A program made the translations under genes and the position numbers. Shown here one piece after another: positions 22,375 through 50,413 of a stretch of DNA of 64,000 nt. The DNA lies in the NCBI GenBank assembly GCA_018971305.1, contig JAGXBC010000001.1:173956-237955 (forward strand), in the 5' to 3' direction. Position 1 is the stretch's first letter. Each line of letters opens with the position of its first letter. The stretch comes from Patescibacteria group bacterium. GTDB taxonomy: Bacteria > Patescibacteriota > Minisyncoccia > UBA6257 > 2-01-FULL-56-20. Under the pieces are notes generated by a model that was not told where the DNA came from, ran no database searches, and saw only the letters and a list, made by a program, of their open reading frames with translations.

Positions 22375-23907
22375 ATGCAGAAACGTTCGGTAATGCTTAT
22401 AATTTTGGACGGTTGGGGAATTGGCAAAGAAGACGATACCAATCCGGTTAACATCGCGAAGCCGGAGACATTTTCCTGGCTACGAAAAAATTTTCCCTTA
22501 ACTAGCCTGCGGGCATCGGGTATTGCAGTAGGTCTCCCCTGGGGAGAAACAGGCAACAGCGAGGTCGGACATTTAACGCTCGGTGCCGGCAAGGTTATAT
22601 ATCAATACTACCCGAAAATCACTATGGCTATTCAAGACGGCAGCTTCTTTGAAAATCCGGTCTTAAAAGATGCCTTCGCCCATGCAAGAAAAAATAGCTC
22701 GGCAGTCAACTTCGCCGGGCTTTTGAGCCGCGGCAACGTCCATGCGGCGCTCGATCATCTGCTAGCTCTTATTGAAATGGGCGAGAAAGAAAACGTGCCG
22801 GTGAAACTTCATCTTTTCGCCGACGGCAAGGACACCCCTCCCAAGAGCGTGCTAAAATTCCTCAAAGAAATTCCCGCGGAAAAAATTGCCACGCTCACCG
22901 GCCGCTATTACGCGATGGACCGCAGCGGAAAATGGCAACTAACTGAACAGGCTTATAACAACCTTGTCGGTAAATCAGGAATAATCGTCGTGAGTCCCGA
23001 CGAAGAGTTGGAAAAGGTTTTCTCCCGCGATCTTTCGGAAGAATATCTACCGCCCTTAAGATTCGGCGCCGGAAGTGAGATAAAAGACGGCGAGTCGCTT
23101 GTCTTCTTCAACTACCGCGAAGACAGCATCCGTCAGACAGCCGAGGCCTTCATTTTAAAAGATTTCAACGAATTCCCGCGTGAAAATTTCCAAGACCTGT
23201 ATATCGCCACATTCACCCATTATGAAGACAAACTTACTGCTCCGGTTGTTTTTGACGGCGACAAAGTAATGGAACCTCTCGGCAAAGTCATAAGTGATGC
23301 CGGGAAAAATCAACTGCGTCTCGCCGAGAGCTATAAATATGCCCACGTAACATTTTTTTTCAACGGCTATAGAGAATCACCTTTCAAAAACGAGTATAGA
23401 ATTTTAATTCCTTCTCTCTCAACCGCCAAACCAGAAGAGCATCCCGAACTCCAAGCCCAGGCCATAACCGACCGCCTGCTGGAAACAATACAAAATCCGG
23501 CATTTGATTTTATTCTTGTCAATTATTCCAACCCGGATACGATGGGACACACTGCCAACTTTGAGGCCGGCGTGGAAGCCGTTCGCACCATAGATAAAGA
23601 ACTCGGCCGCCTTTTAAAATCGGCGATAAACCCGGACATGGCGATTATCATAACTTCCGATCACGGCAATATAGAAGAAATGCTTGATCCAACCACTGGT
23701 TTACCCGAAAGTCAGCACGATCCGAACCCGGTCCCCTTATATCTCATCGCTCCGGAATTCAAGGGGAAAAAATTCTTGAACTGGCAGAATATTGAGAACG
23801 AAACGATGGGCGGACTAGCGGATGTCGCCCCTACCATTTTGGAACTTTTAGGCATCAAACAGCCGCCCGAAATGACGGGTAGAAGCCTATTGGAGGGGTT
23901 AATATAA
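22375..23907 (+). CDS. gpmI: 2,3-bisphosphoglycerate-independent phosphoglycerate mutase
   Basis: 510 aa. Contains LIILDGWGIG, NSEVGHLTLGAG and ITSDHGN. Confidence 0.95.
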   Translation: MQKRSVMLIILDGWGIGKEDDTNPVNIAKPETFSWLRKNFPLTSLRASGIAVGLPWGETGNSEVGHLTLGAGKVIYQYYPKITMAIQDGSFFENPVLKDAFAHARKNSSAVNFAGLLSRGNVHAALDHLLALIEMGEKENVPVKLHLFADGKDTPPKSVLKFLKEIPAEKIATLTGRYYAMDRSGKWQLTEQAYNNLVGKSGIIVVSPDEELEKVFSRDLSEEYLPPLRFGAGSEIKDGESLVFFNYREDSIRQTAEAFILKDFNEFPRENFQDLYIATFTHYEDKLTAPVVFDGDKVMEPLGKVISDAGKNQLRLAESYKYAHVTFFFNGYRESPFKNEYRILIPSLSTAKPEEHPELQAQAITDRLLETIQNPAFDFILVNYSNPDTMGHTANFEAGVEAVRTIDKELGRLLKSAINPDMAIIITSDHGNIEEMLDPTTGLPESQHDPNPVPLYLIAPEFKGKKFLNWQNIENETMGGLADVAPTILELLGIKQPPEMTGRSLLEGLI

Positions 23908-26614: not shown

Positions 26615-28504
26615 ATGCTAAAAAAATCAACGGAACGTCCGCGGATAAAACCTCCGGCCGTGCCGCGTCGTAATCCTCCGGATGCAGGCGGGGCAATTCC
26701 AAAGCGAACCGCTCGTCCGGCACAAACCGGATCACGAGGCGGAAATGGCAACGCCTTTCAACACGCGCGTCATTTTTCGCGCACACGCGAAACTAATCCA
26801 TCTCCGAAACCGGAATACGAAAAAACGGGCGGCGATGAAAATAGCGACAAACTCCGCTTCGTACCCCTTGGCGGACTGGAAGAAGTCGGGAGAAATTCTA
26901 TGTTCTATGAATACAAGAACGAGATCGTCGTGGTAGATCTCGGCCTGCAATTTCCGGAAGAAGAAACTCCGGGAATAGATTATATAATTCCCAACGTCAC
27001 TTATCTTGAAAAGAAAAAAACCAATGTCCAGGCCGTAATTTTGACTCACGCTCACTACGACCACATCGGCGCCGTTCCGCACGTCATAGAAAAACTCGGC
27101 AATCCTCCGATATACACGACATCCATCACGAAAGCGATAATAGAAAAACGCCAATCGGATTTCCCGAACAGTCCGAAACTGAACATTGAGGTCATCAAGA
27201 ATGGAGATAAAATCAAACTCTCTAATTATTTTGAAGCGGAGTTCTTCGGCGTACCGCATACTGTCCCAGAAACTGTCGGAGTTGTTTTAAAAACTCCCAT
27301 AGGAAATATGGTTCACTTCGCCGACTTCAGAATTGAATATGACGAGAAGGGAACCGCTCACGGCCTTGAAGAATTCGAGCGCATCGGCAAACTCGGTATC
27401 CACACATTTACCATAGACAGCACCAATGCCGAAAAAGAAGGAAAAACAATTTCGGAAAAAACCGTTGAGAAAAACCTGGAAGAGATCTTCCGCAAATCAG
27501 ACGGCAGGATAATCGTCGCCACCTTCGCTTCGCTTTTAACCCGCATCGCGGAAATAATAAAAATAGCCGAGAAAATCGGGCGGCGCGTGGCTTTATCCGG
27601 CTATTCAATGAAAACCAACGTACAGATCGCGCAAAACCTCGGCTTTATCAAAGCCAAACAGGGAACGATAATCTCTCTTGATGAAATAAACAAGCATAGG
27701 GACGAGAAACTTCTTATCCTCTCCACCGGCGCCCAAGGCGAAGCGAATGCCAGCTTGATGAAAATAATCAACGGCGAACACCGGCAGGTTAAACTCAAAC
27801 ACGGCGACACGGTTGTGCTTTCGTCTTCCGTAATCCCGGGAAACGAGCGAAGCGTCCAAGTCGTGAAAGATAATCTGGCAAGACAGGGTGCGATAGTCCA
27901 CACTTCGGCATTGATAGACATCCACTCTTCCGGACACGCCCCCAAAGATGACCTGCAACTCGTAATGAAACTTATTAAGCCGAAATTCCTGCTCCCCGTT
28001 CATGGCTACTATTTCATGCGCTCGGCAAACGCCCAGTCGGCGCGGGAAGTTGGCATACCGAAAGAAAACGTCATCTTGATGGACAACGGCCAAGTCGCCG
28101 AACTTGATAAAGACAGTTTCAAAATAACCAAAGAAACCGTTCCGGCGTTTTACGTTATGGTTGACGGCCTTGGCGTCGGCGACGTGGAAGAAGTGGTTCT
28201 CCGCGACAGGCGCGCGCTTGCCGCCGAAGGAATGGTTGTGATTATCACAACCATAGATAAAGACAAAGGTAAATTACTTAAGAGCCCGGACATCATTTCG
28301 CGCGGATTTATTTATCTCAAAGAAAATCAGGAGGTCTTAGATCAGGTGAGAAAAAAGATCCGCGACCTGATGCAGCGCCTGCCGAGCTACCAGCCGATTG
28401 AAGCCGACTATCTGAAAACCCTTATCCGCGATCAAGTAGGACAGTTCCTCTATACTAAAACCAAGAGACGTCCCATGATATTGCCGGTAATAATAGAAAT
28501 CTAG
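26615..28504 (+). CDS. rnj: Ribonuclease J (MBL/beta-CASP) with about 80-aa basic N-terminal extension
   Basis: 629 aa. Contains LRFVPLGGLEEVGRNSMFYEY, LTHAHYDHIGAVP and HSSGHA. The N-terminal 80 aa are Pro/Arg/Lys-rich and low in complexity. Confidence 0.9.
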   Translation: MLKKSTERPRIKPPAVPRRNPPDAGGAIPKRTARPAQTGSRGGNGNAFQHARHFSRTRETNPSPKPEYEKTGGDENSDKLRFVPLGGLEEVGRNSMFYEYKNEIVVVDLGLQFPEEETPGIDYIIPNVTYLEKKKTNVQAVILTHAHYDHIGAVPHVIEKLGNPPIYTTSITKAIIEKRQSDFPNSPKLNIEVIKNGDKIKLSNYFEAEFFGVPHTVPETVGVVLKTPIGNMVHFADFRIEYDEKGTAHGLEEFERIGKLGIHTFTIDSTNAEKEGKTISEKTVEKNLEEIFRKSDGRIIVATFASLLTRIAEIIKIAEKIGRRVALSGYSMKTNVQIAQNLGFIKAKQGTIISLDEINKHRDEKLLILSTGAQGEANASLMKIINGEHRQVKLKHGDTVVLSSSVIPGNERSVQVVKDNLARQGAIVHTSALIDIHSSGHAPKDDLQLVMKLIKPKFLLPVHGYYFMRSANAQSAREVGIPKENVILMDNGQVAELDKDSFKITKETVPAFYVMVDGLGVGDVEEVVLRDRRALAAEGMVVIITTIDKDKGKLLKSPDIISRGFIYLKENQEVLDQVRKKIRDLMQRLPSYQPIEADYLKTLIRDQVGQFLYTKTKRRPMILPVIIEI

Positions 28505-28556: not shown

Positions 28557-29549
28557 ATGAAACCAATTCTTGTTTCCGGCATCCAGACTTCAGGCCGATT
28601 GCACCTTGGCAATTATTTGGGCGCCTTAAAAAATTTTGTTGACCTGCAAAATTCGGGAAAGTACGATTGTTATTTTTTCTTAGCCGACTTACATTCATTA
28701 ACCGAGGCGTTCAATCCAGAAGATAAACATAAACAAGTCATTGAACTGGCCGCGGATTTTCTGGCTGCCGGCCTGGACCCCAAGAAATCCGTTATCTTCC
28801 AGCAATCGCAGGTCCCGGCGCATACGGAACTCGGATGGATTTTCAATACGATTACGCCATTCGGAGAATTAAACAGGATGACACAGTTTAAAGAGAAATC
28901 CGACGCGCAAAAAGAAAATGCGAATGTCGGGCTTTTAACTTATCCCACTCTGATGGCCGCCGACATTCTTTTATATGACGCCAAATTTGTGCCGGTTGGC
29001 GACGACCAAAAACAGCATTTGGAACTCACGAGAACTATCGCCCGTAAATTCAACGCCAAATTCGGCGAAACTTTCACGGAGCCACAACCACTATTTACAG
29101 CAGCCACTCGGGTGATGAACCTTGGCGAACCGGAGCGAAAAATGTCCAAGTCGCGCTCGCATCCACAAAACGTGATTTTCGTTGACGACTCGCCGGAAGA
29201 AATTTCCGCCAAAATAAAATCCGCCGTAACAGACTCCGGCTCGGAGGTTAAGTACGACATCAAAAACAAACCCGCAATAAGCAACTTGCTTACTATCTAT
29301 TCCGCCCTAAGCGGAGAAGCCATCCCTAAACTGGAGAAATATTTCACAGGGAAAAAGTATTCAGAGTTCAAAGTTAAGCTTGCAGAGCTGATATCCGATT
29401 ACTTCGCGGATTACCGCAAGAAGAAAAAGTTATTACTCGCCAAACCGCAGACACTTATAACAACGCTCAAATCCGGTTCAGCCAAAGCGGCAAAAGTTGC
29501 CGACAAAAAGATACACGAAGTTAAAAAAATAATAGGATTGGCGATTTAA
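28557..29549 (+). CDS. trpS: Tryptophan--tRNA ligase
   Basis: 330 aa. Contains GIQTSGRLHLGNYLGA (HIGH-type motif) and KMSKS. Confidence 0.95.
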   Translation: MKPILVSGIQTSGRLHLGNYLGALKNFVDLQNSGKYDCYFFLADLHSLTEAFNPEDKHKQVIELAADFLAAGLDPKKSVIFQQSQVPAHTELGWIFNTITPFGELNRMTQFKEKSDAQKENANVGLLTYPTLMAADILLYDAKFVPVGDDQKQHLELTRTIARKFNAKFGETFTEPQPLFTAATRVMNLGEPERKMSKSRSHPQNVIFVDDSPEEISAKIKSAVTDSGSEVKYDIKNKPAISNLLTIYSALSGEAIPKLEKYFTGKKYSEFKVKLAELISDYFADYRKKKKLLLAKPQTLITTLKSGSAKAAKVADKKIHEVKKIIGLAI

Positions 29550-32500
29550 ATCTTCCTTACAGCCAACCAGGAATCCGCGCCGTTAACCTTCGTTTCCGCC
29601 TCCGCTTCAAATTTTTCCGATTTTTTATATTCTATCGCTTCGGCTCCGACCTCAACTTTCAAAACTTTTTCGTACTTGTAGATTGCGAGACGCACTTCCG
29701 CCGGCAACTGGGCCATCAATATCATTTTATCCTTCGGCTTAAGCCCGGATTTTTGCCGCAGCTCCTGAACGGCCCTTATTATCTCCCGCAATATACCCTC
29801 TTCGCGCAGTTCCGGCGTGACAACGGTATCCAGTTCAATTTCTTCCTTAAATCTGGCACTGAAAACAACTTTCTTAATATTCACCTCTTCTGCTAAAATA
29901 CCAAGCAATTCTTTGGGAATCTTCAGCTTTCCGGTTTTAACCCTGAGTTCACCGAGAGGCTGACGGACTTTTATTCCCGCCTCCGCCCGCTTGGCCAATC
30001 CCAAACTAGCCAAACGCCTCACTTCGGCCATTCCTTCCAGTAATTTAGAATTTTGAGTTTTTAATTTTGGTTTTGTCTCCGGCCAATCTTCCAAATGAAC
30101 TGATTCCTGCGTTCCGTTAAGTTCTCCGTAAAGTAATTCCGAAAAGAATGGTGCGAAGGGAGCTGTTAGTTTCGCCGTTTCACGCAGAACCAAGCCGAGT
30201 GTGGCGCAAGCCGAATCAAAATCCTTGGCGCTCTCCGGTTTTTGCAAGCGCCGGCGCGAACGGCGGATATACCAGCGCGACAGATCGTCAACCAACTTCT
30301 CTATAACAAGCGCGGCTTCTCTTATTTCGTATTTATCCAGGTGCTTTGTGGTATCGGCAACAGTTTCTCCGAGCCGAGACAGAATCCATTTGTCCAGAAC
30401 ATTGGTCGAGGATGGAATTTTATCTCCCGAACTTTTCTCGCTCGCATATGTTTTATAAAATACCAAACTGTTCCAAAGAAGCATGTGCATCCTGCGGTAT
30501 GTTTTCGAAATCTCGTTCTCGTCAAAATTTTTTGTCTCGCCCGGAGGATTCACGGTATAGAAATACCAGCGGACGGCATCAACTCCGTATTTATTGATAA
30601 CCTCCCAGGGGTCAACTATATTCCCTTTGGACTTGGACATTTTCTGCCCGTGCTTATCGTTTATCAGCCCCAAAGAAACAACGTTCTTATATGGCGCCGG
30701 GTATCCCAAAGATGTAGCAACTGCAAGCAGGGTGTAAAACCATCCTCGCGTCTGATCCATTGCCTCCGAAATATAATCTGCCGGATAAGCGCGGCTTTTG
30801 TCTATAGCATCCTCATTCTCAAAAGGATAATGCTGCTGAGCGAAAGGCATTGAGCCGGAATCAAACCAGACGTCAGCTACTTCTTTGACCCGTCCTGTTC
30901 TCGCGCCGCATTGCGGGCAGGCAATATGGATACCATCGGCATATGGCTTGTGCAGGTCTATAACTCCAGTACCATCACGGGGCACTATCTTTAGAGTTAA
31001 CTCTCTTGTTTCAGCTACGCCGATAAAATCCTGGCCACGGCTTATTTTTTCCCGTATAGCGCGTTTTTCATCCCATGCTTCCGCCGCGTGCGTAAGCATC
31101 CAGATCGGATACTCATGGCTCACGAGCAGGATATTCTTGCCGCGGTATTTTTTTTCCAATTCCTGCAAAATTTCCCAAACCCGACTGCGCAAATCGCGCA
31201 GGGACTCGCCTCCTTCCGGCTTGCCCTCAAACTTTGATTCGTATGTGGGAAAAAGCTTATGGTAGCGGCTATCACGGCCCCCCTGAAGCATTGAACCCAA
31301 ATCTACCTCGCGCAGACGTTTGTCGAAAACTACTTTTTTGACGCCCAATGCCTCCGCCGCAATCTCGGCTGTTTCTTTTGTCCGGATTATGTCCGAAGAA
31401 ACGATGACGTCTATTTTTTTTCTGCTGCTTTTTAGTTTCTGCAAAAAATTTTTCGCCGACTTTTCCGCGAGCGAGCGGCCGATAACGGTCAAAGTGTTGT
31501 CTTTAGACCAACCGGAATCAATAAAGTGTTCGGCGTTGCTTTTCGCCTCTCCGTGCCGCATAACCCAATAATTATTCCTGGAACCTCCGGCAAGCTTACT
31601 GAGCTCGTCAATGCCTCCCGCCACTTCGCAGTGATTGCATTTTTTGCATTCCCAGATCGGTAACGGCGTTCCCCAGAACCGTTCACGGGAAAAATTCCAA
31701 TCTTTAACCTCACGCAGCCATTCGCCGAAACGCCCCTGTTTTACGTATTCCGGCGTCCAATTGATTTTATTGTTATTGGCTATAAGCTGCTTCCTTAAAC
31801 CGCTCATGGCTACGAACCAGGAATTTCTTGCGTAATATAGAATTGGCGTGCCGCACCGCCAGCAGTAGGGATAATCATGCTTGTAGGGAAGAACTTTCAG
31901 GAGCGAACCGCGCTGTTTTAAATGTTCAACGATGCCAGCCTCGGTTTCCTTGGACTTCGCGAACAGGCCGGAGAAACCAGAAACGTCCTTAGTGAACTTC
32001 CCAACTTCATCAACCGTGTGATACCTCGGTAAGCCGACTTTAAGTCCCAGCTGATAGTCATCTTCGCCGTACATAACCGCAGTGTGGACTACCCCGGTTC
32101 CCTCTGTCGTATTAACAAAATCGGCGTCGTAAACCTTGTACGAACTTGGCGAACGCAATGCCGGAATTTCAAAAAGCGGCTCGTAGCTCAGGCCGATAAG
32201 TTCGTTCCCCTCAAAAATCTCCCTCAGGTCGGGGGCGGAACCAAAAATAGCGGGATTATTCTTAACGGCTTCCTCAGCTACAATCCAACGCTCTATTTTC
32301 CCGTCAATCATCTTCTTCAGTACGGCGTATTTGATGTTTTTACCAACGGCCAAAGCCACATTTCCTGGGAGCGTCCACGGCGTAGTCGTCCAGGATAAAA
32401 CATACGTATCATCTCCCGCCGAGAAATATCCGCCGATTTTCTGCCCCCTCTTCAATTTGAATTTTATATAAACGGAGTCATCAGTAGTTTCTTTGTAACC

Positions 32501-33076
32501 CAAAGCAAGCTCGTGCGAAGAAAGCGACGTGCCGCAGCGCACGCACCAGGGAACTACCTTATGTCCCTTATAAAGAAGTTTTTTTGTCCAAAAGCGCTTT
32601 ATTATCCACCAAAGAGTTTCTATGTAGGAGCTTTCGTAAGTTATGTAAGGGTCTTTCAGGTCCAGCCAAAAGCCCATCCGTTTTGTGAGGCGCTCCCATT
32701 CGTCTTTGTATTCCCAGACGGACTCGCGGCATTTTTTATTGAAGGCCTCAACGCCGTAGTTTTCAATGTCCTTTTTCGTTTTCAGGCCCAATTGTTTTTC
32801 CACCCCTATCTCCACGGGCAATCCGTGCGTGTCCCAGCCGCCTTTTCTCGGAACCAAATAGCCCCGCATCGCCTTGTAGCGTGGGATTATGTCTTTGAAG
32901 GCACGAGCCAGAATATGGTGCACGCCCGGCCTGCCGTTAGCAGTTGGCGGACCCTCGTAAAATATGAACTTTTTAGCGCCTTTCCGCTTAGCGAGAGTTT
33001 TTGCAAAAATGTCGCTTTCGTTCCAAAATTTCAAAACTTTTTCCTCCTCCTTGGGAAGATTGAATTCTTCGGGCAT
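29546..33076 (-). CDS. ileS: Isoleucine--tRNA ligase (type 2) carrying an inserted histidine-phosphatase domain
   Basis: 1176 aa. Contains PPTANGRPGVHHILARA, the editing-domain segment TTPWTLPGNVALAV, KMSKSKGN and WFDSGSMPFAQ. It appears longer than the type-2 IleRS lengths I recall (from memory, not checked), and the roughly 190-aa insert between the two CxxC knuckles can account for the excess. Confidence 0.95.
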   Translation of the reverse strand: MPEEFNLPKEEEKVLKFWNESDIFAKTLAKRKGAKKFIFYEGPPTANGRPGVHHILARAFKDIIPRYKAMRGYLVPRKGGWDTHGLPVEIGVEKQLGLKTKKDIENYGVEAFNKKCRESVWEYKDEWERLTKRMGFWLDLKDPYITYESSYIETLWWIIKRFWTKKLLYKGHKVVPWCVRCGTSLSSHELALGYKETTDDSVYIKFKLKRGQKIGGYFSAGDDTYVLSWTTTPWTLPGNVALAVGKNIKYAVLKKMIDGKIERWIVAEEAVKNNPAIFGSAPDLREIFEGNELIGLSYEPLFEIPALRSPSSYKVYDADFVNTTEGTGVVHTAVMYGEDDYQLGLKVGLPRYHTVDEVGKFTKDVSGFSGLFAKSKETEAGIVEHLKQRGSLLKVLPYKHDYPYCWRCGTPILYYARNSWFVAMSGLRKQLIANNNKINWTPEYVKQGRFGEWLREVKDWNFSRERFWGTPLPIWECKKCNHCEVAGGIDELSKLAGGSRNNYWVMRHGEAKSNAEHFIDSGWSKDNTLTVIGRSLAEKSAKNFLQKLKSSRKKIDVIVSSDIIRTKETAEIAAEALGVKKVVFDKRLREVDLGSMLQGGRDSRYHKLFPTYESKFEGKPEGGESLRDLRSRVWEILQELEKKYRGKNILLVSHEYPIWMLTHAAEAWDEKRAIREKISRGQDFIGVAETRELTLKIVPRDGTGVIDLHKPYADGIHIACPQCGARTGRVKEVADVWFDSGSMPFAQQHYPFENEDAIDKSRAYPADYISEAMDQTRGWFYTLLAVATSLGYPAPYKNVVSLGLINDKHGQKMSKSKGNIVDPWEVINKYGVDAVRWYFYTVNPPGETKNFDENEISKTYRRMHMLLWNSLVFYKTYASEKSSGDKIPSSTNVLDKWILSRLGETVADTTKHLDKYEIREAALVIEKLVDDLSRWYIRRSRRRLQKPESAKDFDSACATLGLVLRETAKLTAPFAPFFSELLYGELNGTQESVHLEDWPETKPKLKTQNSKLLEGMAEVRRLASLGLAKRAEAGIKVRQPLGELRVKTGKLKIPKELLGILAEEVNIKKVVFSARFKEEIELDTVVTPELREEGILREIIRAVQELRQKSGLKPKDKMILMAQLPAEVRLAIYKYEKVLKVEVGAEAIEYKKSEKFEAEAETKVNGADSWLAVRKI
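30992..31579 (-). other. Histidine phosphatase (PGAM/branch-1) domain embedded in IleRS (about aa 500-695)
   Basis: YWVMRHGEAKSN (RHG motif), VSSDIIRTKETAEI, LREVDLG, GGESLRDLRSRV and ILLVSHEYPIWML (second His). The domain is flanked by WECKKCNHC and IACPQCG. Confidence 0.75.
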
Positions 33077-33103: not shown

Positions 33104-34072
33104 CTATTCAAAAAATCTGCTGCGTATTTTATGGGTATTGCCATGGCTCAAAAGTCCAAGATAAGCGTTAATCGTCGCTGGCGCTGGGTTGGCTATTACC
33201 ATCTTTAACATTCTTCTTCTCGTCGTTGTCCGAAAAACACGGTGATCAGGAAAATTTATCCACCCCAAAAAATCAACTCCGGACGCAATGGTATTTATGA
33301 AAATTTTATTTGGATGAAGCGTAAGTCGCAATTTATTTTCCAAAAATTCTTTTATTTTTGGAACTAGAGATTCCAGCAATCCGCGGTTCTCCGAGAAAAT
33401 AACGAAGTCGTCCGCATAACGTATATAGTGCCTTGTTTTCAGTTTGTGCTTCACAAACTGGTCAAACTCGTTCATATAAACATTTACAAAGAGTTGTGAA
33501 GTGAGGTTGCCGAGCGGTAAACCTTGTCCAGGCGCGCTTGATGAAAAACTCTCGATAACTCTTTCCAGGAGCCGCAGCGTATCAGCGTCTGGGATATATG
33601 AACGTAGAATATCAAGGAGGACGGCGTGGTCGATGTTGGCAAAAAACTTTTGAATGTCACACCTGAGAACCCAGGAGGTACGCGTATTGTTCTTACTAAT
33701 AATGCGGGCGAACGCGCGAAAACGATTCATTGCGGCATGCGTTCCTTTTCCGACTCGGCATGAGAACGAATCAGCTATGAAAGTTTTATCGAAGAACGGA
33801 TAGAGCACCCGGTAGATGGCGTGATGGAGTAAGCGGTCGCGGACGGTTGCCTTGTGGATATTCCGCGGTTTCGGGTCGCAGATGTTGAATGCTTGATACC
33901 CACCGTGTCGGTACGCACCGTTCAAAATATCCGCGCGAAGTGATAGAATGTTATCCATAAGGCGCGATTGGAACTCCTGCACATCACGTTTCCCGCTCTT
34001 GCCGCGCAAAAATTCCCTCCAGGCCTCAAGCAGGTTTTCCACGCTTATGATTTCCTCAAATTTATGAACCAT
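33104..34072 (-). CDS. DGR-type reverse transcriptase
   Basis: The track ORF is 33104..34264. The likely start is MVHKFEEIISVENLLEAWREF at 34072 (323 aa). RT motifs present are NICDPKPRNIHKATVRDRLLHHA, LGNLTSQLFVNVYM (the DGR-typical xGxxxSQ) and YIRYADDFVIF. No maturase or endonuclease domain. Confidence 0.9.
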   Translation of the reverse strand: MVHKFEEIISVENLLEAWREFLRGKSGKRDVQEFQSRLMDNILSLRADILNGAYRHGGYQAFNICDPKPRNIHKATVRDRLLHHAIYRVLYPFFDKTFIADSFSCRVGKGTHAAMNRFRAFARIISKNNTRTSWVLRCDIQKFFANIDHAVLLDILRSYIPDADTLRLLERVIESFSSSAPGQGLPLGNLTSQLFVNVYMNEFDQFVKHKLKTRHYIRYADDFVIFSENRGLLESLVPKIKEFLENKLRLTLHPNKIFINTIASGVDFLGWINFPDHRVFRTTTRRRMLKMVIANPAPATINAYLGLLSHGNTHKIRSRFFE

Positions 34073-34103
34073 CTTAATTTTCACAATAAAAATTTTCAAG
34101 TAA

Positions 34104-34460
34104 CTCCCCCCCCCCCGACACATCACGCTTCCTATCATCCAACACCTGGTAGCGGCGTACAAAACCTGGCATGAATTTCTGCCGCATGTACCCAAGGATG
34201 CGAGATACTCGTTAGGAACTAAGGTCGACGCTTCGTTTATAGAAACGATTGAAGCGGTATTCACCGCAAGCTATCTCAGTAGAGAGAGTAAACTTCCTTA
34301 TCTCGAAAAAGCTGCCGCGAAACTGGACATGGTTAAATTCTTTCTCCAGATAATCTGGGAAGTCAAGGCGCTCGACAATAAAAAATATATTACACTCTCG
34401 GAAAAGCTGGATGAAATAGGCAGAATGCTCGGCGGATGGCTTAGGAAAATGTCTACTTAA
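34104..34460 (+). CDS. avd: Avd-like four-helix-bundle accessory protein (open frame without ATG/GTG/TTG start; possibly joined to ATG 34064 across the C11 tract)
   Basis: Absent from the ORF track. My plus-strand translation is ...RHITLPIIQHLVAAYKTWHEFLPHVPKDARYSLGTKVDASFIETIEAVFTASYLSRESKLPYLEKAAAKLDMVKFFLQIIWEVKALDNKKYITLSEKLDEIGRMLGGWLRKMST*. The FPK-x-x-RY-x-LG and EIGxMLGGW pattern is typical of Avd / 23S-IVS four-helix-bundle proteins. Confidence 0.7.
   Translation, partial: LPPPRHITLPIIQHLVAAYKTWHEFLPHVPKDARYSLGTKVDASFIETIEAVFTASYLSRESKLPYLEKAAAKLDMVKFFLQIIWEVKALDNKKYITLSEKLDEIGRMLGGWLRKMST
34106..34116. repeat. C11 (G11 on minus strand) homopolymer tract at the avd 5' end / RT 5' leader
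   Basis: Read directly: taact ccccccccccc gaca. The tract separates the ATG-containing frame (ATG 34064) from the conserved avd frame by one nucleotide. Confidence 0.95.
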
Positions 34461-34503
34461 ACCATTCCGCCGGACATCGCCCGTTGTTTTCATTTGCTGC
34501 CAA

Positions 34504-34624
34504 TTACTCGCGACGCGACCGTTGCGATTGAAGTCGTTGTCAAGCCAGTTCCAGTTCAGGTACCAGCGCTCGCCGTTCTGATTGAGGTAGGGAACGTTCC
34601 GGTTGCCGTTCGCGTTCAGCACGA
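34504..34624 (-). repeat. DGR template repeat (TR)
   Basis: The minus strand reads gtgctgAACgcgAACggcAACcggAACgttccctacctcAATcagAACggcgagcgctggtacctgAACtggAACtggcttgacAACgacttcAATcgcAACggtcgcgtcgcgagtaa. It contains nine AAC and three AAT codons in the VR-equivalent frame and pairs with 34964-35084. Confidence 0.85.
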
Positions 34625-34885
34625 ATGTGCGCAAGGCCGTCCGGGCCACCATCCTTCGAGTCACAAACAAAAACCATACTCTCGGGATTGTATCGTATTC
34701 GGAATTTTGAATTCCTTAGCCTCGCACACCAAGTAGCAACAATTATGAAGCGATTAACGAATGCACGCTAGGAGAAAACCCGTCCTCCCCCATTCCGGCA
34801 GACGCCATCGCGGAATTCGATGCGCACAACCTTAGCCGTGCGCATAATATCTACTATCCATAAGGATTATATCAAAAAAATTTAA

Positions 34886-34909
34886 TGGGCCCTAACGAAT
34901 TAGGGCCCA
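34886..34909 (-). terminator. GC-rich UUCG-tetraloop hairpin about 50 nt downstream of the VR / target stop (terminator and/or DGR target-recognition hairpin)
   Basis: The minus strand reads tgggccctaa-ttcg-ttagggccca, a perfect 10-bp stem, followed by ttaaattttttt. Confidence 0.6.
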
Positions 34910-34959
34910 AGGGTTGAGGGTTCAAGCGACACAAAGGATCTGAGTCACAAGAACCAATG

Positions 34960-35580
34960 CTACTTGCTCGCGACGCGACCGTTGCGATTGAAGCCGCAGT
35001 CAAGCCAGCTCCGGCCCAGGTACCAGCGCTCGCCGTTCCGACTGAGGTAGGGAACGTTCCGGTAGCCGTTCGCGTACAGCACGACCAAACCCGGAAAATC
35101 GATGTAAACTTTTCCGAGAAGGGACATGAATACGGGGAATTCATCCTGGTGCTCAACAAGCCAAACGGCCTGCTGGTAACCCAGGACAAGATTCCGGCGG
35201 GACACGAGCCTGCGCTCGTATTCGCTGCCAACGATAGACTTCTCGTCAGAACGCAACAATGTGCCAAGACGGAGAATAACTTCATCGGTTGGCGAAGAGT
35301 CGGACTCGATTTTTTCGATCTGAGAGAACGCCCTGCGGAGTTCCTCGAGTGTCGGCTGCTTCAGGGCTGGAATCCGAACGGCGACATCTTCCATCGTCTT
35401 CCAGAATTCCAACATCTTGATCTCGGCGTTGCCGAGATAGATGTCACGGACGCCTGAAAGGTTGGTGCCGGTTGAAAGCCATTTTACAAAATCGGGCGTG
35501 CAACCATTCCGCTCAAGCGCATGATCGAATTCTGCGGCTTGGCGAGCAAACATGACGGGTTGAGACTTGTCATTAGGCAT
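34960..35580 (-). CDS. DGR variable (target) protein, 206 aa, VR at the extreme C-terminus
   Basis: ORF with a GGAGG RBS (aaaggaggacatgtcATG). The C-terminal ...VVLYANGYRNVPYLSRNGERWYLGRSWLDCGFNRNGRVASK* is encoded by the VR. No signal peptide or TM segment is visible. Confidence 0.85.
   Translation of the reverse strand: MPNDKSQPVMFARQAAEFDHALERNGCTPDFVKWLSTGTNLSGVRDIYLGNAEIKMLEFWKTMEDVAVRIPALKQPTLEELRRAFSQIEKIESDSSPTDEVILRLGTLLRSDEKSIVGSEYERRLVSRRNLVLGYQQAVWLVEHQDEFPVFMSLLGKVYIDFPGLVVLYANGYRNVPYLSRNGERWYLGRSWLDCGFNRNGRVASK
34964..35084 (-). repeat. DGR variable repeat (VR)
   Basis: Aligns to 34504-34624 at offset 460. Inside the core there are 11 mismatches, and 10 of them fall at TR minus-strand adenines (7 A>G, 3 A>T). 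Confidence 0.85.
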
Positions 35581-35774: not shown

Positions 35775-37475
35775 CTATATTCTGTCAATAGCAGTGATTC
35801 CCAATAAATTCAGCCCTTTTTCTATGATTTTCGCCGTTATATTAATAAGCCCAAGAAGCGCGCTCCGCCGACTGGCGGATTCTTCTTTGAGTACCGGCGT
35901 GGTTTCGTATAAACGGTTAGCCAACACGGCCAGCTTATAAAGATAGTTAGCTAGGTTGCTCGTCTGCAGTGTTTCCCCACTTCGCGCCACTTCGTCGGGA
36001 AATTCAAAAATTTTCCGAGCGAGCGCAAGTTCAACATCAGAATTTAATAATGTAAAGTTCTTGCTTTTAGGTTTTAGAGCTTGGGACTTTCTTAAAATAC
36101 TCTTAAGGCGGGCATACGTGTACTGCAAATACGGCCCGCTGTCTCCGGAAAAATCCAGCATTCTTTTCCAGTCAAAAACGATGTCGGTTGTGCGTCCCTC
36201 CCGCAAATCATTGTATTTCAAGGCTCCAACGGCAACCGCCTCAGCGATTTTATCTTTTTCTTTAGCCGATAATTCTTTATTTTTTTCTTCAACAATCTCC
36301 CTCGCCAGCTTGATAGCCTTACCTAAAACCTCTTTAAGTAATATGGTCCTCCCTTCGCGTGTAGCGAGCTTTTGGCCGCTCTCCCCTAGAACCAAACCGT
36401 ATTTAACGTGCTTGAGTTCAACCCCATCGGCCAATCCAAGAATATTAGTTATGGCGAAAAGCTGTTCAAAGTGCAGAGATTGTTCGTTGCCCACAACATA
36501 TAAAATTTTCTCCGGCTTATATTTTTTGACACGGTATTCAATATTCGCAATATCGCGCGTAAGGTAAAGGGATGCTCCATCCGCTTTTTCTATTAACGCC
36601 GGAGGCAGATTGAACTTATCTAGTTTTATAACTATCGCGCCCTCGCTTTTTACGGCGACGCCGTCTTGCACAAGGCGCGAAACAAGCGGCTTCATATCTT
36701 TCTCAAAAAAGCTTTCGCCTTTCCATTCGTCGAACTCTACACCGAGCTCTTTATATGTTCTCTCGAATTCTTTAAGCGATTCTTTTTTAAACCATTGCCA
36801 AAGCTTGCGGTTTTCCTTATCGCCTTCTTCTAATTTTTTGAATTCTTCCTGGCCCTCCAGCTCCAATCCCGGGCGGGACTTCATCTCGTCGTGAAAGCGG
36901 ACGTAGAGCTTCTGCAATTCCTCTATTGGTTTTTCTTCTATCTTTTTCTTATCGCCCCACATTTTATAGGCGGCGATAAGTTTGCCGAACTGCGTCCCCC
37001 AGTCGCCCAAATAATTCCAGCGGATAACTTTATATCCCAGTGATTCAAAAACATTGGCAAGCGCCGCGCCGATTATCGTTGTCCGCAAATGGCCCACGTG
37101 CATCATCTTCGCGATATTCGGCTGAGAATATTCAACGATAACGGTTTTGCTTTTTCCAATACTTCTCTCGCCATATTTTTTTATATTCTTGGTAACCATG
37201 GCCAATTCGTTTTGCAGCGCTTCAGGTGAAAACCAAAAGTTTATAAATCCCGGCGCAGCGGCTTCAACTTTTTGGAAAAACCCAGCCGGCGCAGCGGCAC
37301 TAATTTTCTGCACCAATTCCCTGGCCAGTTCAAGAGGATTTTTCTTTTCCCGCTTAGCCAAAACCATAGCCAAGTTCGTGGAATAATGGCCGAAGTTTTC
37401 TTGTTCCGGAACTGTAACGCTAAAATCTCTGCCATCGGAAAACTCGGATAAAATTTTTATTATCTTATCTTTCAT
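35775..37475 (-). CDS. argS: Arginine--tRNA ligase
   Basis: The ORF is 35775..37502. The probable start is MKDKIIKIL. Contains SQPNIAKMMHVGHLRTTIIG (HIGH-type motif), the DALR anticodon-binding C-terminus and the terminal ...ITAIDRI. Confidence 0.95.
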   Translation of the reverse strand: MKDKIIKILSEFSDGRDFSVTVPEQENFGHYSTNLAMVLAKREKKNPLELARELVQKISAAAPAGFFQKVEAAAPGFINFWFSPEALQNELAMVTKNIKKYGERSIGKSKTVIVEYSQPNIAKMMHVGHLRTTIIGAALANVFESLGYKVIRWNYLGDWGTQFGKLIAAYKMWGDKKKIEEKPIEELQKLYVRFHDEMKSRPGLELEGQEEFKKLEEGDKENRKLWQWFKKESLKEFERTYKELGVEFDEWKGESFFEKDMKPLVSRLVQDGVAVKSEGAIVIKLDKFNLPPALIEKADGASLYLTRDIANIEYRVKKYKPEKILYVVGNEQSLHFEQLFAITNILGLADGVELKHVKYGLVLGESGQKLATREGRTILLKEVLGKAIKLAREIVEEKNKELSAKEKDKIAEAVAVGALKYNDLREGRTTDIVFDWKRMLDFSGDSGPYLQYTYARLKSILRKSQALKPKSKNFTLLNSDVELALARKIFEFPDEVARSGETLQTSNLANYLYKLAVLANRLYETTPVLKEESASRRSALLGLINITAKIIEKGLNLLGITAIDRI

Positions 37476-37557
37476 TACCATTAAGAATAATATAAAAAGC
37501 AATAATTGTCGCAGAAAACAAAAACCGCCGCTTTTATGCGACGGTGGATTCCCAAGG

Positions 37558-47860: not shown

Positions 47861-50413
47861 TCATGCCTTTGTTTCGCCGATCTCATTAAATTGTATTTCT
47901 TCTCCGACAGAAGAAACCTTTATATGGCTGCCGCGATTTACTGTTTTTTTCAATATCTTCTGCGCGAGCGGGGCACGAAGCTTTTCATCTATCACTCGGC
48001 GCAGAGGCCTCGCACCGAATGCAGGATCATAACCAAGCTTAACAAGCTCACTAATCAGAGAGTCGTCGAATTCCATCTTTATACCCTGCTCGGCTACCAT
48101 GGCCGCGACATCCTGCAGATTAATTGAGACTATCTTAGCCAGATCTACCGGAAGAAGATTTTTAAAAATAACGATGCGCGAGAATCTATTGATAAGTTCC
48201 GGCTTAAAAACATCGGTTAATCTTTTCTTTAGATATTCCGATATTTCCGACATGGACTGTCCTTTATTCAGAGCATCGTTGATGATATCCGAATGGGCGT
48301 TGGACGTGGCGATAATAACCGTATTTTGAAAATCAACCACTCTTCCCAAGTTGTCGGTCAGGCGGCCATCATCCAAAACCTGCAGAAAAAGGTTGAGTAT
48401 GTCCGGAAATGCTTTTTCAAACTCATCCAAAAGCACCAAGCTGTATGGTTTCTGTAAAATCGCATCTGTGAGCGTACCGTTCACGCTGCCATCCGGTGAA
48501 CCGATAAATCTGTAGAAACTTTGCTTGTCTTGGTATTCCGTCATATCAAAACGCACCATCGCTTTTTCCGAGCCGAACTGAACGCGCGCCAGAATCTTAG
48601 CGAGCTCGGTTTTGCCGACGCCGGTAGGGCCAACAAAGAGAAAACTGGAAATCGGGCCGCCGGCGCGAGAAAGGCCGCTTCTATATTCTCGTAAAGATTC
48701 GGATACGGCGCGCACGGCTTCTTCCTGATCGATTAGACGTTCGTGAATAATATTCTCCAGGTTCAAAAGTTGTTTAGCTTCGTCACCGGACGCCTCGTGG
48801 ATAGGAATATTCACCTTAGCCTCTGCCACCCTGATAACCTGCTCCGGGCCAAGAACTTTTTCTCCCCTTCTTTTTACGTCTACTACAGCGCTTTTCAATA
48901 GTTCCTCGGCGCTTGCCGGTAAAAATTTATTGCGAAAATATTTTTTAGCGAGAATCACGGATTTCTTTACGGCGCCGAAACTAATGGTAACGCCAAACTG
49001 CTTCTCCAACAGCAACCCATCGTAACTCAAGATTTTTTCGGCTTCGTCTTCCTTTATTTCATTAACTCTGATAATTTCAAATGCGCCGGCGAAATCGCTT
49101 CTCGGCTCAATGAACTGCTTAAACTCTTTGGGATATGTAGCACCAATTATAGGAAAAGAATTATTCATAATTATCGGCATCAGCTCATCGGCGGCGGAAA
49201 GGTATGCCGTACCCGAGGTCCGCACTAAATTATGAATGTCCGCGATATAGATTATAATATTGCCGGCAGTTATGATCTCCTCAATAATTTTCTTCAGCCG
49301 CTGATTCAACTCTTCCGGCGGCGCTCCCGCAACCAAGCTACCAAGCTCCAATCCCACAAGCCTCTTGTCGAAAAGTGCCTGTGGCACTTCGTCTTTGGAT
49401 AATTTATAAGCCAAGTGGGCAACCAATGTTTCCTTGCCTATACCGGATTCACCTATCAGCAAGGCATTAGGGTTTATCGGCCGAGCCAATGTATCTATTA
49501 ATCGTTCCAATTCTTCTTTATGACCGATAAGAAACCCCGCGCGTCCCTGCCTGGCTAAATCGGTGAAATCGGTGGAATATCTATCTAGAGTAGGAGTCGG
49601 TCTTGAAGTCCAATCCCTGTTCATGATTCTGTGCCTTGACCGAACCGGTCCCGACACAAAACCGGCTACGCTGCCGGGCAAACGTCCGAACGAAGAACTC
49701 TTACTTAAGGAGCTGAAAATCAATGCTCTTTCCAGGTCCCCGGCATCAATCCCGAAGATTCCGAATATCCTCTTCAAAGATTCGTTTTCTATTAGGGGGA
49801 GGGAAGAAAATAGGTCGCTTAATTCTATGAATGCGTGTCCCGACTCCAACGCCCGATTCAGAGCGCTAACCGTTAAAAGTTCCACGTTCCCGAGGAGAGA
49901 TTCTTGTGTCGGACCCACTCCTTCGCCCCTGCCGCTGGCGGATAAAAATTCTTCGATTTTCTGCCTGAATTCATCAAAGGGAATATCAAGGCGCCTCAAG
50001 CCGCTTTCTATTTCAGAAAAATTAAGAAGCTGGCGCGCCAGTTCCAAAAAGAAATCGTGCCGAGTGATTAGGCTACTATCGAAAGATTTTTCTATTATCC
50101 CGAATGCCTTCGGCCTAAGAAATAAGGCCAGATTAACCCTTCCCTTTCTGGGGAATTCTGTAAGCGGCTTATCCGCCTGCCTCAGGTGCATTACTCTGTC
50201 TAGTAAGAATAAAATCAGAAATATACCGAAGAAACGCATCCAGGTTAAATCAGACAAAATAAATGTCGCGGTTGCGGCGGCAAGAACCAGGTATCCAATG
50301 TAGCTCAAAATCCTCACCAAAAATCTGCCTGGCCAGCTCATCCGCAGGCGCGGGTCGTTGAAGGAAAGTTTTAATTCCTGAGCTCTTTTTGTTTTAGAAA
50401 TTTCTTGCTGCAT
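47861..50413 (-). CDS. Membrane-anchored Clp/Hsp100-like double-AAA+ protein with degenerate first ATPase module
   Basis: 850 aa. N-terminal TM helices (FLVRILSYIGYLVLAAATATFIL, FFGIFLILFLL). D1 has Walker A GESGIGKET and Walker B IYIADIH, both non-canonical. D2 is canonical ([32 protein letters not shown]). There is no ClpB-type coiled-coil M-domain. Confidence 0.85.
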   Translation of the reverse strand: MQQEISKTKRAQELKLSFNDPRLRMSWPGRFLVRILSYIGYLVLAAATATFILSDLTWMRFFGIFLILFLLDRVMHLRQADKPLTEFPRKGRVNLALFLRPKAFGIIEKSFDSSLITRHDFFLELARQLLNFSEIESGLRRLDIPFDEFRQKIEEFLSASGRGEGVGPTQESLLGNVELLTVSALNRALESGHAFIELSDLFSSLPLIENESLKRIFGIFGIDAGDLERALIFSSLSKSSSFGRLPGSVAGFVSGPVRSRHRIMNRDWTSRPTPTLDRYSTDFTDLARQGRAGFLIGHKEELERLIDTLARPINPNALLIGESGIGKETLVAHLAYKLSKDEVPQALFDKRLVGLELGSLVAGAPPEELNQRLKKIIEEIITAGNIIIYIADIHNLVRTSGTAYLSAADELMPIIMNNSFPIIGATYPKEFKQFIEPRSDFAGAFEIIRVNEIKEDEAEKILSYDGLLLEKQFGVTISFGAVKKSVILAKKYFRNKFLPASAEELLKSAVVDVKRRGEKVLGPEQVIRVAEAKVNIPIHEASGDEAKQLLNLENIIHERLIDQEEAVRAVSESLREYRSGLSRAGGPISSFLFVGPTGVGKTELAKILARVQFGSEKAMVRFDMTEYQDKQSFYRFIGSPDGSVNGTLTDAILQKPYSLVLLDEFEKAFPDILNLFLQVLDDGRLTDNLGRVVDFQNTVIIATSNAHSDIINDALNKGQSMSEISEYLKKRLTDVFKPELINRFSRIVIFKNLLPVDLAKIVSINLQDVAAMVAEQGIKMEFDDSLISELVKLGYDPAFGARPLRRVIDEKLRAPLAQKILKKTVNRGSHIKVSSVGEEIQFNEIGETKA

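Follow-up and report, generated by a model that had tools for sequence, protein, structure and literature searches.

A complete histidine phosphatase domain nested in the zinc hairpin of a type-2 isoleucyl-tRNA synthetase from Paceibacteria-type Patescibacteria

Here we analysed a stretch of 64,000 nucleotides from a Patescibacteria group bacterium (contig JAGXBC010000001.1 of assembly GCA_018971305.1; hereafter the window, in whose 64-kb numbering all positions are given, taxon names being used as written in the sequence records). Its ileS gene encodes a type-2 isoleucyl-tRNA synthetase (IleRS) that carries a whole histidine phosphatase domain between the two halves of its zinc knuckle. A first-pass annotation of this DNA had proposed that the phosphatase is inserted in frame into the synthetase, the gene being neither an end-to-end fusion nor a pseudogene, and our results bear out that proposal. 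The open reading frame (ORF) of 1176 codons is continuous, its product scores 855.5 bits against the NCBIfam model for isoleucine-tRNA ligase (TIGR00392; cutoff 621.4), the nested part matches the Pfam family His_Phos_1 (PF00300) with E = 4.4e-29, the IleRS motifs are intact, and the insert is internal and conserved. PF00300 was found in each of the 120 nearest homologues (cluster representatives from NCBI, JGI, ENA and Logan, 56-66% identical to the window protein and 1155-1271 aa long). Both the architecture and the evolutionary pattern described below are solid and surprising. The parts of the gene on which the argument rests are the following.

29546..33076, minus strand: ileS, 1176-aa type-2 IleRS with the nested domain, a single uninterrupted ORF
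31595..33076, minus strand: IleRS N-terminal part (aa 1-494), comprising the first Rossmann half, the editing domain in connective peptide 1 (CP1) and the connective peptide as far as the first half of the zinc knuckle; matches residues 7-478 of Thermus thermophilus IleRS (1ILE)
32915..32926, minus strand: GVHH (aa 51-54), the swapped GXHH form of the class I HIGH signature, read from the sequence
31637..31648, minus strand: first zinc-knuckle half, C477-K-K-C480 (WECKKC, aa 475-480), both cysteines invariant in the 120 homologues
30962..31594, minus strand: nested insert (aa 495-705, about 211 residues), a whole histidine phosphatase domain of about 195 aa with short linkers, delimited by comparison with 1ILE and with the insert-free IleRS of locus L085
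30908..30919, minus strand: second zinc-knuckle half, C720-P-Q-C723 (IACPQCG, aa 718-724), both cysteines invariant in the 120 homologues
29546..30961, minus strand: IleRS C-terminal part (aa 706-1176), comprising the second Rossmann half and the anticodon-binding and type-2 C-terminal domains; matches 1ILE residues 488-821
30629..30643, minus strand: KMSKS (aa 812-816), read from the sequence

The host protein is a housekeeping type-2 IleRS of a Paceibacteria-type Patescibacterium, and it is the only IleRS-like region within the 64-kb window, in which no other phosphatase was found either. In the Pfam analysis tRNA-synt_1 was split into two stretches by His_Phos_1, followed by Anticodon_1 (aa 895-1041) and DUF5915 (aa 1048-1175). 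The C-terminal part contains WFDSGS (aa 737-742) and DQTRGWF, and the editing domain of the T. thermophilus enzyme (1WK8) aligns to aa 192-404. Judged from these motifs and domains (GVHH, KMSKS, WFDSG/DQTRGWF, CP1 and the anticodon domains), the synthetase part retains everything required for isoleucine activation, transfer and editing. The full-length AlphaFold2 (AF2) model has a mean predicted local distance difference test (pLDDT) of 92.1 and a predicted template modelling score (pTM) of 0.87, with the insert blocks at pLDDT 82-98. In Foldseek comparisons its template modelling (TM) score, relative to the target, was 0.79 with PmIleRS2 and 0.89 with T. thermophilus 1ILE, yeast IleRS falling within 0.79-0.89, and the T. 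thermophilus enzyme is the closest solved relative of the synthetase.

The swapped signature GVHH deserves separate comment. Across the 120 homologues the consensus is PGIHH; H54 does not vary among them, conservation of H53 is at least 90%, and the GXHH form is common to all Paceibacteria-type homologues examined, whereas the nested-phosphatase IleRS of the Gracilibacteria/Peregrinibacteria type have canonical HYGH. Such a signature is functional in IleRS2 and is tied to mupirocin hyper-resistance, and the IleRS lineage of Deinococcus-Thermus is described as having reverted from an ancestor that had GXHH (Brkic et al. 2023, PMC10485003). The window protein resembles the enzymes of that study in having GVHH in place of HXGH, but the paper describes no inserted domain. 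By motif alone the window IleRS fits the GXHH subclass, G/A-X-H-H replacing H-X-G-H in an IleRS2 background; the NCBIfam models of mupirocin-resistant MupA and MupB (NF000257/8) scored 768 and 766 against a cutoff of 1900, which was not reached.

Alignment to 1ILE pairs residues 4-494 of the query with 1ILE residues 7-478 and residues 706-1035 with 488-821, and from these limits about 211 residues take the place of about 10. An insert-free IleRS from the candidate phyla radiation (CPR), that of locus L085, runs ...CDKCKKKVVVGSIKELEKLSSVKVTDLHKHFIDKIEFSCSC... across the hairpin, and because it reads uninterrupted there the insert can be placed precisely: it occupies the tip of a zinc hairpin about 40 residues long. 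The insertion point corresponds approximately to residue 478 of PmIleRS2, an enzyme in which CP1 and CP2 separate the two parts of the catalytic core, residues 40-168 and 513-632 (Brkic et al. 2023, PMC10485003). Alignment thus puts the insert in a zinc hairpin that belongs to the connective-peptide region preceding helix alpha3 and lies outside the Rossmann core proper; this region is called CP2 by Brkic et al. (2023, PMC10485003) and CP2/CP3 by Chen et al. (2024, PMC11685878). Nothing occupies the insert position in any solved IleRS structure. The first-pass annotation had set the phosphatase within the catalytic core: it was right about the place between the zinc-knuckle halves, but the site is the connective-peptide hairpin and not the Rossmann core itself. 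The span it gave, 30992-31579, does translate to aa 500-695 of the ORF, but the true insert is slightly wider, and the two CxxC pairs, which it put about 235 residues apart, are indeed widely separated, the exact distance from C480 to C720 being 240 residues. The GC content hardly varies along the gene (insert, 0.487; N-terminal IleRS part, 0.483; C-terminal IleRS part, 0.470), and these near-equal values leave no compositional discontinuity at the insert.

By its motifs and its profile and fold matches the insert is a complete branch-1 histidine phosphatase, similar to PhoE, PspA and CobC. A profile search, an alignment to type-2 IleRS and a survey of related genomes had been suggested in the first-pass annotation; the first of these gave the His_Phos_1 match, and the motifs which that annotation had quoted are all present, within 1-2 residues of where it placed them. 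The predicted catalytic set is as follows.

31052..31567, minus strand: region matched by the Pfam profile His_Phos_1 (aa 504-675), with E = 4.4e-29, a score of 102 bits (gathering score 21.7) and coverage of positions 2-168 of the 194 in the profile
31550..31558, minus strand: R507-H508-G509, the catalytic RHG motif (RHGEAKSN, aa 507-514), H508 being the predicted phospho-acceptor; R and H invariant in 120/120 homologues
31382..31384, minus strand: R565, predicted second phosphate-binding arginine (IIRTKETA, aa 563-570); invariant in the 120 homologues and kept in 416/417 domain copies
31307..31309, minus strand: E590, predicted general acid (LREVDLG, aa 588-594); at least 90% conserved, D being the main alternative
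31115..31117, minus strand: H654, second active-site histidine (VSHEYP, aa 652-657); invariant in the 120 homologues and kept in 416/417 domain copies

A further motif, GGESL, occupies aa 622-626. When the insert is aligned with PhoE, R507/H508, R565 (on 'sgRAleTA'), E590 (on 'RLREIhLG') and H654 fall on the corresponding PhoE catalytic motifs. H654 is followed in the window clade by E ('SHE'), where the family usually has G. In searches of the insert profile against solved structures the best matches were PhoE/YhfR (1e-19), PspA phosphoserine phosphatase (1.6e-19) and CobC (4e-16), Rv2419c being matched too. The AF2 model of the domain alone (pLDDT 93.5, pTM 0.91) has as its nearest Foldseek neighbours PspA (4IJ6), Rv2419c, entries named 'mycobacterial hydrolases', PhoE, TIGAR and CobC, with TM scores of 0.70-0.76 and, for PspA, Rv2419c and PhoE, a probability of 1.00; these closest folds are short phosphatase-type members of the superfamily and not the longer mutases. 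The closest solved relatives, PhoE/YhfR (1EBB, 1H2E), PspA iPSP1 (4IJ5/4IJ6), Rv2419c GpgP (4PZ9) and CobC (6NRU, 6E4B), share with the insert the six motifs and the R-H-R-E-H set, with profile E values from 1e-19 to 1e-12, but they are free-standing proteins of 22-26% identity in which 'HG' is usual where the insert clade has 'SHE'. None of the specific NCBIfam models reached its equivalog cutoff, neither those of cofactor-dependent phosphoglycerate mutase (dPGM, covering GpmA, GpmB and the archaeal form; NF038349, 61.7 vs 225; NF002901, 56.3 vs 261; NF002339, 35.8 vs 316) nor those of CobC (TIGR03162, 51 vs 162.9) and PspA (NF045917, 49 vs 350), and for this reason the insert belongs to the superfamily but lies outside every characterised specificity class.

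The nested arrangement is widespread. We scanned one GTDB genome per species with a single clade-specific peptide pattern, followed by tblastn confirmation, and this yielded at least 337 confirmed nested-form loci; the best 80 of the 337 lie in ORFs of about 1150-1350 aa with RHG near residue 500 and the insert in the same position. The records that carry this form are named Paceibacterota, Parcubacteria, Minisyncoccia, Liptonbacteria, Wolfebacteria, Nomurabacteria, Campbellbacteria and Magasanikbacteria. Many nested-form GTDB records (L001, L006, L009, L011 and others) are titled 'uncultured Candidatus Saccharibacteria bacterium', which we suspect to be a submitter's umbrella label rather than a real placement. 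The 120-sequence alignment shows no variation at C477, C480, C720, C723, R507, H508, R565, E624, R632 and H654, and the insert is comparable to the IleRS domains in mean column conservation (0.64 against 0.61-0.79). These patterns indicate that the nested phosphatase is under strong purifying selection on its catalytic residues, and that the insertion is, as far as sequences tell, a clade-wide trait of Paceibacteria-type Patescibacteria and no singularity. The first-pass annotation had allowed that the extra residues might be a common lineage-specific IleRS insertion unrelated to phosphatases: common and lineage-specific the insertion is, but it is itself the phosphatase. It had also named a chimeric assembly as a possible source, which is excluded by the continuous ORF and GC content and by the same architecture in hundreds of independent assemblies. 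The conservation of the architecture across assemblies leads us to dismiss a chimera and a pseudogene, the probability of which is negligible, and equally an intein or other removable element, since the insert lacks intein-type junction residues and is conserved like the IleRS domains, as an enzyme.

In a search of the insert alone against 1.84 billion cluster representatives, 5191 matches were obtained at E<=1e-3 and 494 at E<=1e-10, and among the best 150 nearly all matches longer than 260 aa were IleRS. Some matches of about 200 aa, taken first as free-standing genes, proved to be fragments on contigs of 1-2 kb; true free-standing genes were confirmed on long contigs. This free-standing homologue, here called hp, has 187-196 aa and about 40% identity to the insert. 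It forms at least 317 clusters with E<=1e-15 to one member, annotated as 'histidine phosphatase family protein' or PhoE, in Patescibacteria including Staskawiczbacteria. In all seven organisms with readable context (L084-L087, L090-L096) hp lies immediately upstream of ileS, and in most of them directly downstream of argS, the order being pyrH-argS-hp-ileS-x-recO with gaps of 1-4 nt; in one organism there is a CYTH gene between hp and ileS, and in one a NUDIX gene plus a hypothetical gene between argS and hp. The IleRS of these genomes has 931-968 aa and an uninterrupted zinc hairpin. Among the best 80 nested-form loci, argS was found within about 2.5 kb upstream of ileS in 59, mostly on the same strand, with no separate hp gene. 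The window has argS on the same side:

35775..37502, minus strand: argS, arginyl-tRNA synthetase (ArgRS), 575 aa, upstream of ileS (Pfam Arg_tRNA_synt_N, tRNA-synt_1d and DALR_1)

The nested domain probably arose by capture of an operon neighbour, as gene order and sequence similarity suggest. In this model argS would have been the ancestral upstream operon partner of ileS in an argS-hp-ileS cluster, hp would have been captured into the ileS hairpin, and the free copy would then have been lost, the nested copy being held by purifying selection. The free-standing Patescibacteria hp shares subfamily and neighbourhood with the insert and is its probable ancestor, but it is a separate gene. Genes for nucleotide phosphohydrolases also occur next to hp or a few kb from it, namely NUDIX genes in L084 (6915-7361) and L087 (499-948), CYTH genes in L094 (5070-5660) and L095 (3939-4529) and a HIT gene in L090 (56-505); these neighbours may represent a nucleotide by-product theme or a coincidence.

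The hairpin is not the only site at which CPR IleRS have received this domain. In IleRS from records named Gracilibacteria, Peregrinibacteria or Peribacteria it is also found downstream of the second CxxC, in the stretch that separates WFDSG from DQxRGW, and at the junction of the KMSKS/SC-fold region with the anticodon domain (site classes in the large set were assigned by motif landmarks, with an alignment check for representative proteins only). Two, three or at least four copies can be present in one IleRS (P0190, P0194, P0212, P0263 and P0168; locus L081, 6001-10260). Copies inside one protein are only 27-36% identical and domain copies group by site, from which it follows that the insertions are old and separately inherited. 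The R-H-R-E/D-H set is intact in nearly all 417 domain copies, including all 53 at the third site, and the R and H of RHG are kept in the non-truncated copies with a single R-to-K change. The domain was found at neither terminus in any of the 274 near-full-length domain-bearing IleRS (0/274). Other enzyme domains are nested in CPR IleRS as well, including GNAT, a P-loop kinase (AAA_33/AAA_18/Zeta-toxin-like), a serine hydrolase/abhydrolase, a DUF559 endonuclease-like domain and an IS200-type Y1 transposase (P0282, P0343, P0359, P0365, P0333 and P0344; lengths up to 1859 aa), and in P0343 a HAD_2 phosphatase occupies the place where the histidine phosphatase normally sits. Outside IleRS, ArgRS carries a member of this subfamily at its C-terminus in P0195 (689 aa; L082/L083, 8001-10070; two assemblies, apparently of one organism), and in one case TsaC/Sua5 is joined to such a domain (P0171, 387 aa; L089, 977-2140; a single 3.7-kb contig). 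The TsaC/Sua5 fusion is not supported as a recurrent architecture, a metagenome scan having given matches to the phosphatase half only, all of them argS-hp-ileS or nested forms.

Nested catalytic domains in synthetases (CP1), enzyme fusions (LysX) and an NCBI family of IleRS with GNAT were known before. The CP1 editing domain of IleRS, ValRS and LeuRS is, like the insert, an autonomous hydrolytic domain in the connective-peptide region that leaves the synthetase core intact, but it is universal in these enzymes and deacylates mischarged tRNA, while the insert is an unrelated histidine phosphatase fold, restricted to a clade and placed in the zinc hairpin after CP1. The curated family ileS_w_GNAT (NF040702) already shows that a CPR IleRS can host a foreign enzyme domain, and several of its members also have His_Phos_1; unlike the window protein they contain GNAT, for which the window IleRS gave no Pfam match and an NF040702 score of 332.7 against a cutoff of 1999. 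The best NCBIfam match of the phosphatase part was the bifunctional RNase H/acid phosphatase (Rv2228c type, PRK07238; E = 3.7e-23, 82 bits vs a cutoff of 326), which likewise joins a CobC-like histidine phosphatase covalently to a nucleic-acid enzyme, but as an end-to-end fusion with a different partner, whereas the domain in the window is nested. LysX, in which LysRS is fused to MprF, is a synthetase covalently joined to a second enzyme (PMC5388404); there, however, the partner uses the Lys-tRNA product and the fusion is terminal. The author of the first-pass annotation knew of no phosphatase domain embedded in a synthetase catalytic core, and we found no description of a phosphatase in IleRS or any other synthetase in open-access papers and bioRxiv; phosphatases also go unmentioned in a community catalogue of synthetase domain superfamilies from 2024. 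The sequences themselves were already public with the domain tagged automatically, one of them under the JGI name 'isoleucyl-tRNA synthetase/phosphohistidine phosphatase SixA/...'.

What the nested domain does can be approached from its catalytic residues, which make it very probable that the phosphatase is active. We favour, at a probability of roughly 0.5, a bifunctional polypeptide in which a PhoE-like phosphomonoesterase captured from an operon neighbour provides the second of two independent catalytic centres. H508 would act as nucleophile, passing through a phospho-H508 intermediate, with R507, R565 and H654 holding the phosphate and E590 serving as acid, and the phosphatase part would hydrolyse a small phosphomonoester (a phosphorylated metabolite or nucleotide) outside the chemistry of aminoacylation. 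That the substrate is such a small molecule and that the phosphatase works independently of the IleRS reaction we hold to be about an even chance. The spread of insertion sites is hard to reconcile with a need for one exact position with respect to the IleRS active site: two of the sites (WFDSG-DQxRGW and SC-fold-anticodon) are far in sequence from the hairpin, and at least two are remote in sequence from the region that handles the CCA end. The variety of nested domains, mobile-element types included, and the viability of free hp in Staskawiczbacteria fit capture followed by an evolutionary ratchet in drift-prone reduced genomes.

Several observations weigh against this favoured reading. The nesting sites number four or more, are ancient and were inherited separately, and none of them is terminal, though free hp lies 1-10 nt upstream of ileS, where an N-terminal fusion would have been easy. 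A non-homologous HAD phosphatase stands at the equivalent place in P0343, and copies are fused to ArgRS and once, in the single contig that was not reproduced, to TsaC/Sua5. This pattern of nesting and fusion hints at a tighter link with aminoacylation than mere co-expression, and the pTM of 0.87 of the full-length model suggests that the domain has a defined rather than a floppy placement. IleRS may have been turned into a scaffold in CPR bacteria, with an extra catalytic site coupled to tRNA charging that adds a hitherto unrecognised repair, quality-control or self-protection activity; we put this forward tentatively. In that case the phosphatase, and the kinase, GNAT or HAD modules of sister lineages, would have as their target the 3' end of the tRNA, a by-product of aminoacylation or an inhibitor of IleRS, a reading from which we lean away. 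The targets suggested in the first-pass annotation, a phosphorylated nucleotide, a tRNA end or a signalling nucleotide, are likewise conceivable.

Among the specific forms that such coupling could take, by-product clearance survives best, although we consider it unlikely. Here the phosphatase, tethered at the place where they arise, would remove phosphorylated products or side products of adenylate formation (ATP -> X-AMP + PPi), the targets named being pyrophosphate (PPi), AMP, other nucleotides and fragments of side products of the Ap4A type. The subfamily is fused to three ATP-PPi enzymes, namely IleRS, ArgRS and TsaC/Sua5, and the free hp gene sits between argS and ileS, but gene adjacency alone explains the ArgRS fusion and the TsaC fusion is known from one short contig that the metagenome scan did not recover. 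NUDIX, CYTH and HIT genes stand beside hp in some genomes (L084, L087, L094/L095 and L090) and HAD_2 takes the same place in P0343, yet such gene neighbours are anecdotal evidence. Relatives of the CobC type have a nucleotide-like 5'-phosphate as their substrate; to our knowledge, however, no branch-1 histidine phosphatase is a pyrophosphatase, and hydrolysis of AMP would waste nucleotides in organisms that depend on salvage.

A third catalytic site serving the tRNA 3' end, which after the pattern of CP1 editing would make damaged or toxin-modified tRNA chargeable by taking off a 2'/3'-phosphate or pyrophosphate, is in our view quite unlikely. The nesting in the connective-peptide region, home of the CP1 hydrolytic editing domain that acts on the tRNA end, would suit it, and so would the constantly internal, never terminal position of the domain and its fusion to a second tRNA-binding enzyme, ArgRS. 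A P-loop kinase (AAA_33) accompanies the phosphatase domains in some CPR IleRS, and a pairing of kinase and phosphatase occurs in RNA end-healing enzymes such as Pnkp. However, we found no enzyme of the histidine phosphatase superfamily acting on RNA ends in the open-access literature and bioRxiv, the sites in the alpha3-beta4 loop and at the SC-fold/anticodon junction are not near the CCA-handling region in sequence, the free-standing form is without a tRNA-binding module, and up to four copies per protein are hard to square with a precise docking site.

Protection of the target would be a different kind of coupling, in which the phosphatase, and in relatives the GNAT, kinase and esterase-like domains, inactivate IleRS-directed antibiotics or aminoacyl-adenylate mimics. 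The GXHH motif, associated with mupirocin hyper-resistance in IleRS2, suggests past inhibitor pressure, and GNAT, P-loop kinase and serine hydrolase are typical classes of drug-modifying enzymes; the GNAT enzymes MccE and RimL do detoxify aminoacyl-adenylate mimics. We know of no phosphorylated IleRS inhibitor, however, and the same domain is fused to ArgRS and present as a free gene, so that we judge this role very unlikely. Neither the window protein nor the free-standing homologue matched any PADLOC family, a result that also speaks against protection, and a defence-system component was rejected as a candidate on these searches.

Still more improbable is a protein phosphatase or regulatory module, or a non-catalytic sensor of a phosphate ligand, that controls IleRS in the manner of SixA, PGAM5 or Sts. 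The superfamily does include protein phosphatases, one relative carries the label 'phosphohistidine phosphatase SixA' at JGI and some relatives contain kinase domains as well. In profile and fold the insert is nevertheless closest to small-molecule phosphatases, SixA was not among the top NCBIfam matches, and the strictly kept full catalytic set speaks against a purely binding role. Finally, the 'missing' glycolytic phosphoglycerate mutase (PGM) of Parcubacteria, carried on an essential gene, was suggested by the superfamily of the domain (PGAM) and by the report that PGM is undetected in several shallow Parcubacteria clades (Jaffe et al. 2020, PMC7304191), but it is rejected as next to impossible because the genome encodes its own cofactor-independent PGM (iPGM), about 6 kb from ileS, and the dPGM models score far under their cutoffs while the fold neighbours are of the short phosphatase type.

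The remaining genes of interest in the window include this iPGM and a diversity-generating retroelement (DGR), which lies between argS and ileS on the minus strand (33104-35580).

22375-23907, plus strand: iPGM, 510 aa (Metalloenzyme and iPGM_N)
26615-28504, plus strand: RNase J, just upstream of trpS
28557-29549, plus strand: trpS, tryptophanyl-tRNA synthetase (TrpRS), 330 aa, converging on ileS with overlapping stop codons (29546-29549)
33104-34264, minus strand: DGR reverse transcriptase (RVT_1, E = 2.6e-23)
34498-34624 and 34958-35084, minus strand: DGR template repeat and variable repeat, 89% identical, with 10/11 mismatches at template adenines
34960-35580, minus strand: DGR target gene, 206 aa, with the variable repeat at its 3' end and no Pfam match
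8495-11143 and 47861-50413, both minus strand: two ClpB-like AAA+ genes
2125-5520, minus strand: ORF of 1131 aa whose sole Pfam match is PG_binding_1 (peptidoglycan-binding, aa 77-128)

Three class I synthetase genes, argS, ileS and trpS, are thus found inside 9 kb. The ClpB-like gene at 47861-50413 has no Pfam match to Clp_N and none to AAA in its first half, and could be a paralogue that has diverged or been truncated.

Few enzymes are catalogued as well as the aminoacyl-tRNA synthetases, and yet the IleRS of at least 337 species-representative genomes harbours a conserved and catalytically intact phosphatase. These genomes belong to CPR, one of the largest and least understood bacterial radiations, in which the phosphatase has been nested repeatedly, sometimes multiplied or accompanied by kinase or acetyltransferase domains. 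There are consequences for annotation, the nested-phosphatase proteins now being named only 'class I tRNA ligase family protein', and the extra length together with the GXHH motif bears on studies of IleRS phylogeny and mupirocin resistance. If the phosphatase is coupled to charging, the maintenance of tRNA or of aminoacylation would have a new layer. Without such coupling, IleRS of these Patescibacteria would be a clear natural case of an operon neighbour captured by insertion into the interior of a gene, with an evolutionary ratchet then acting in reduced genomes.

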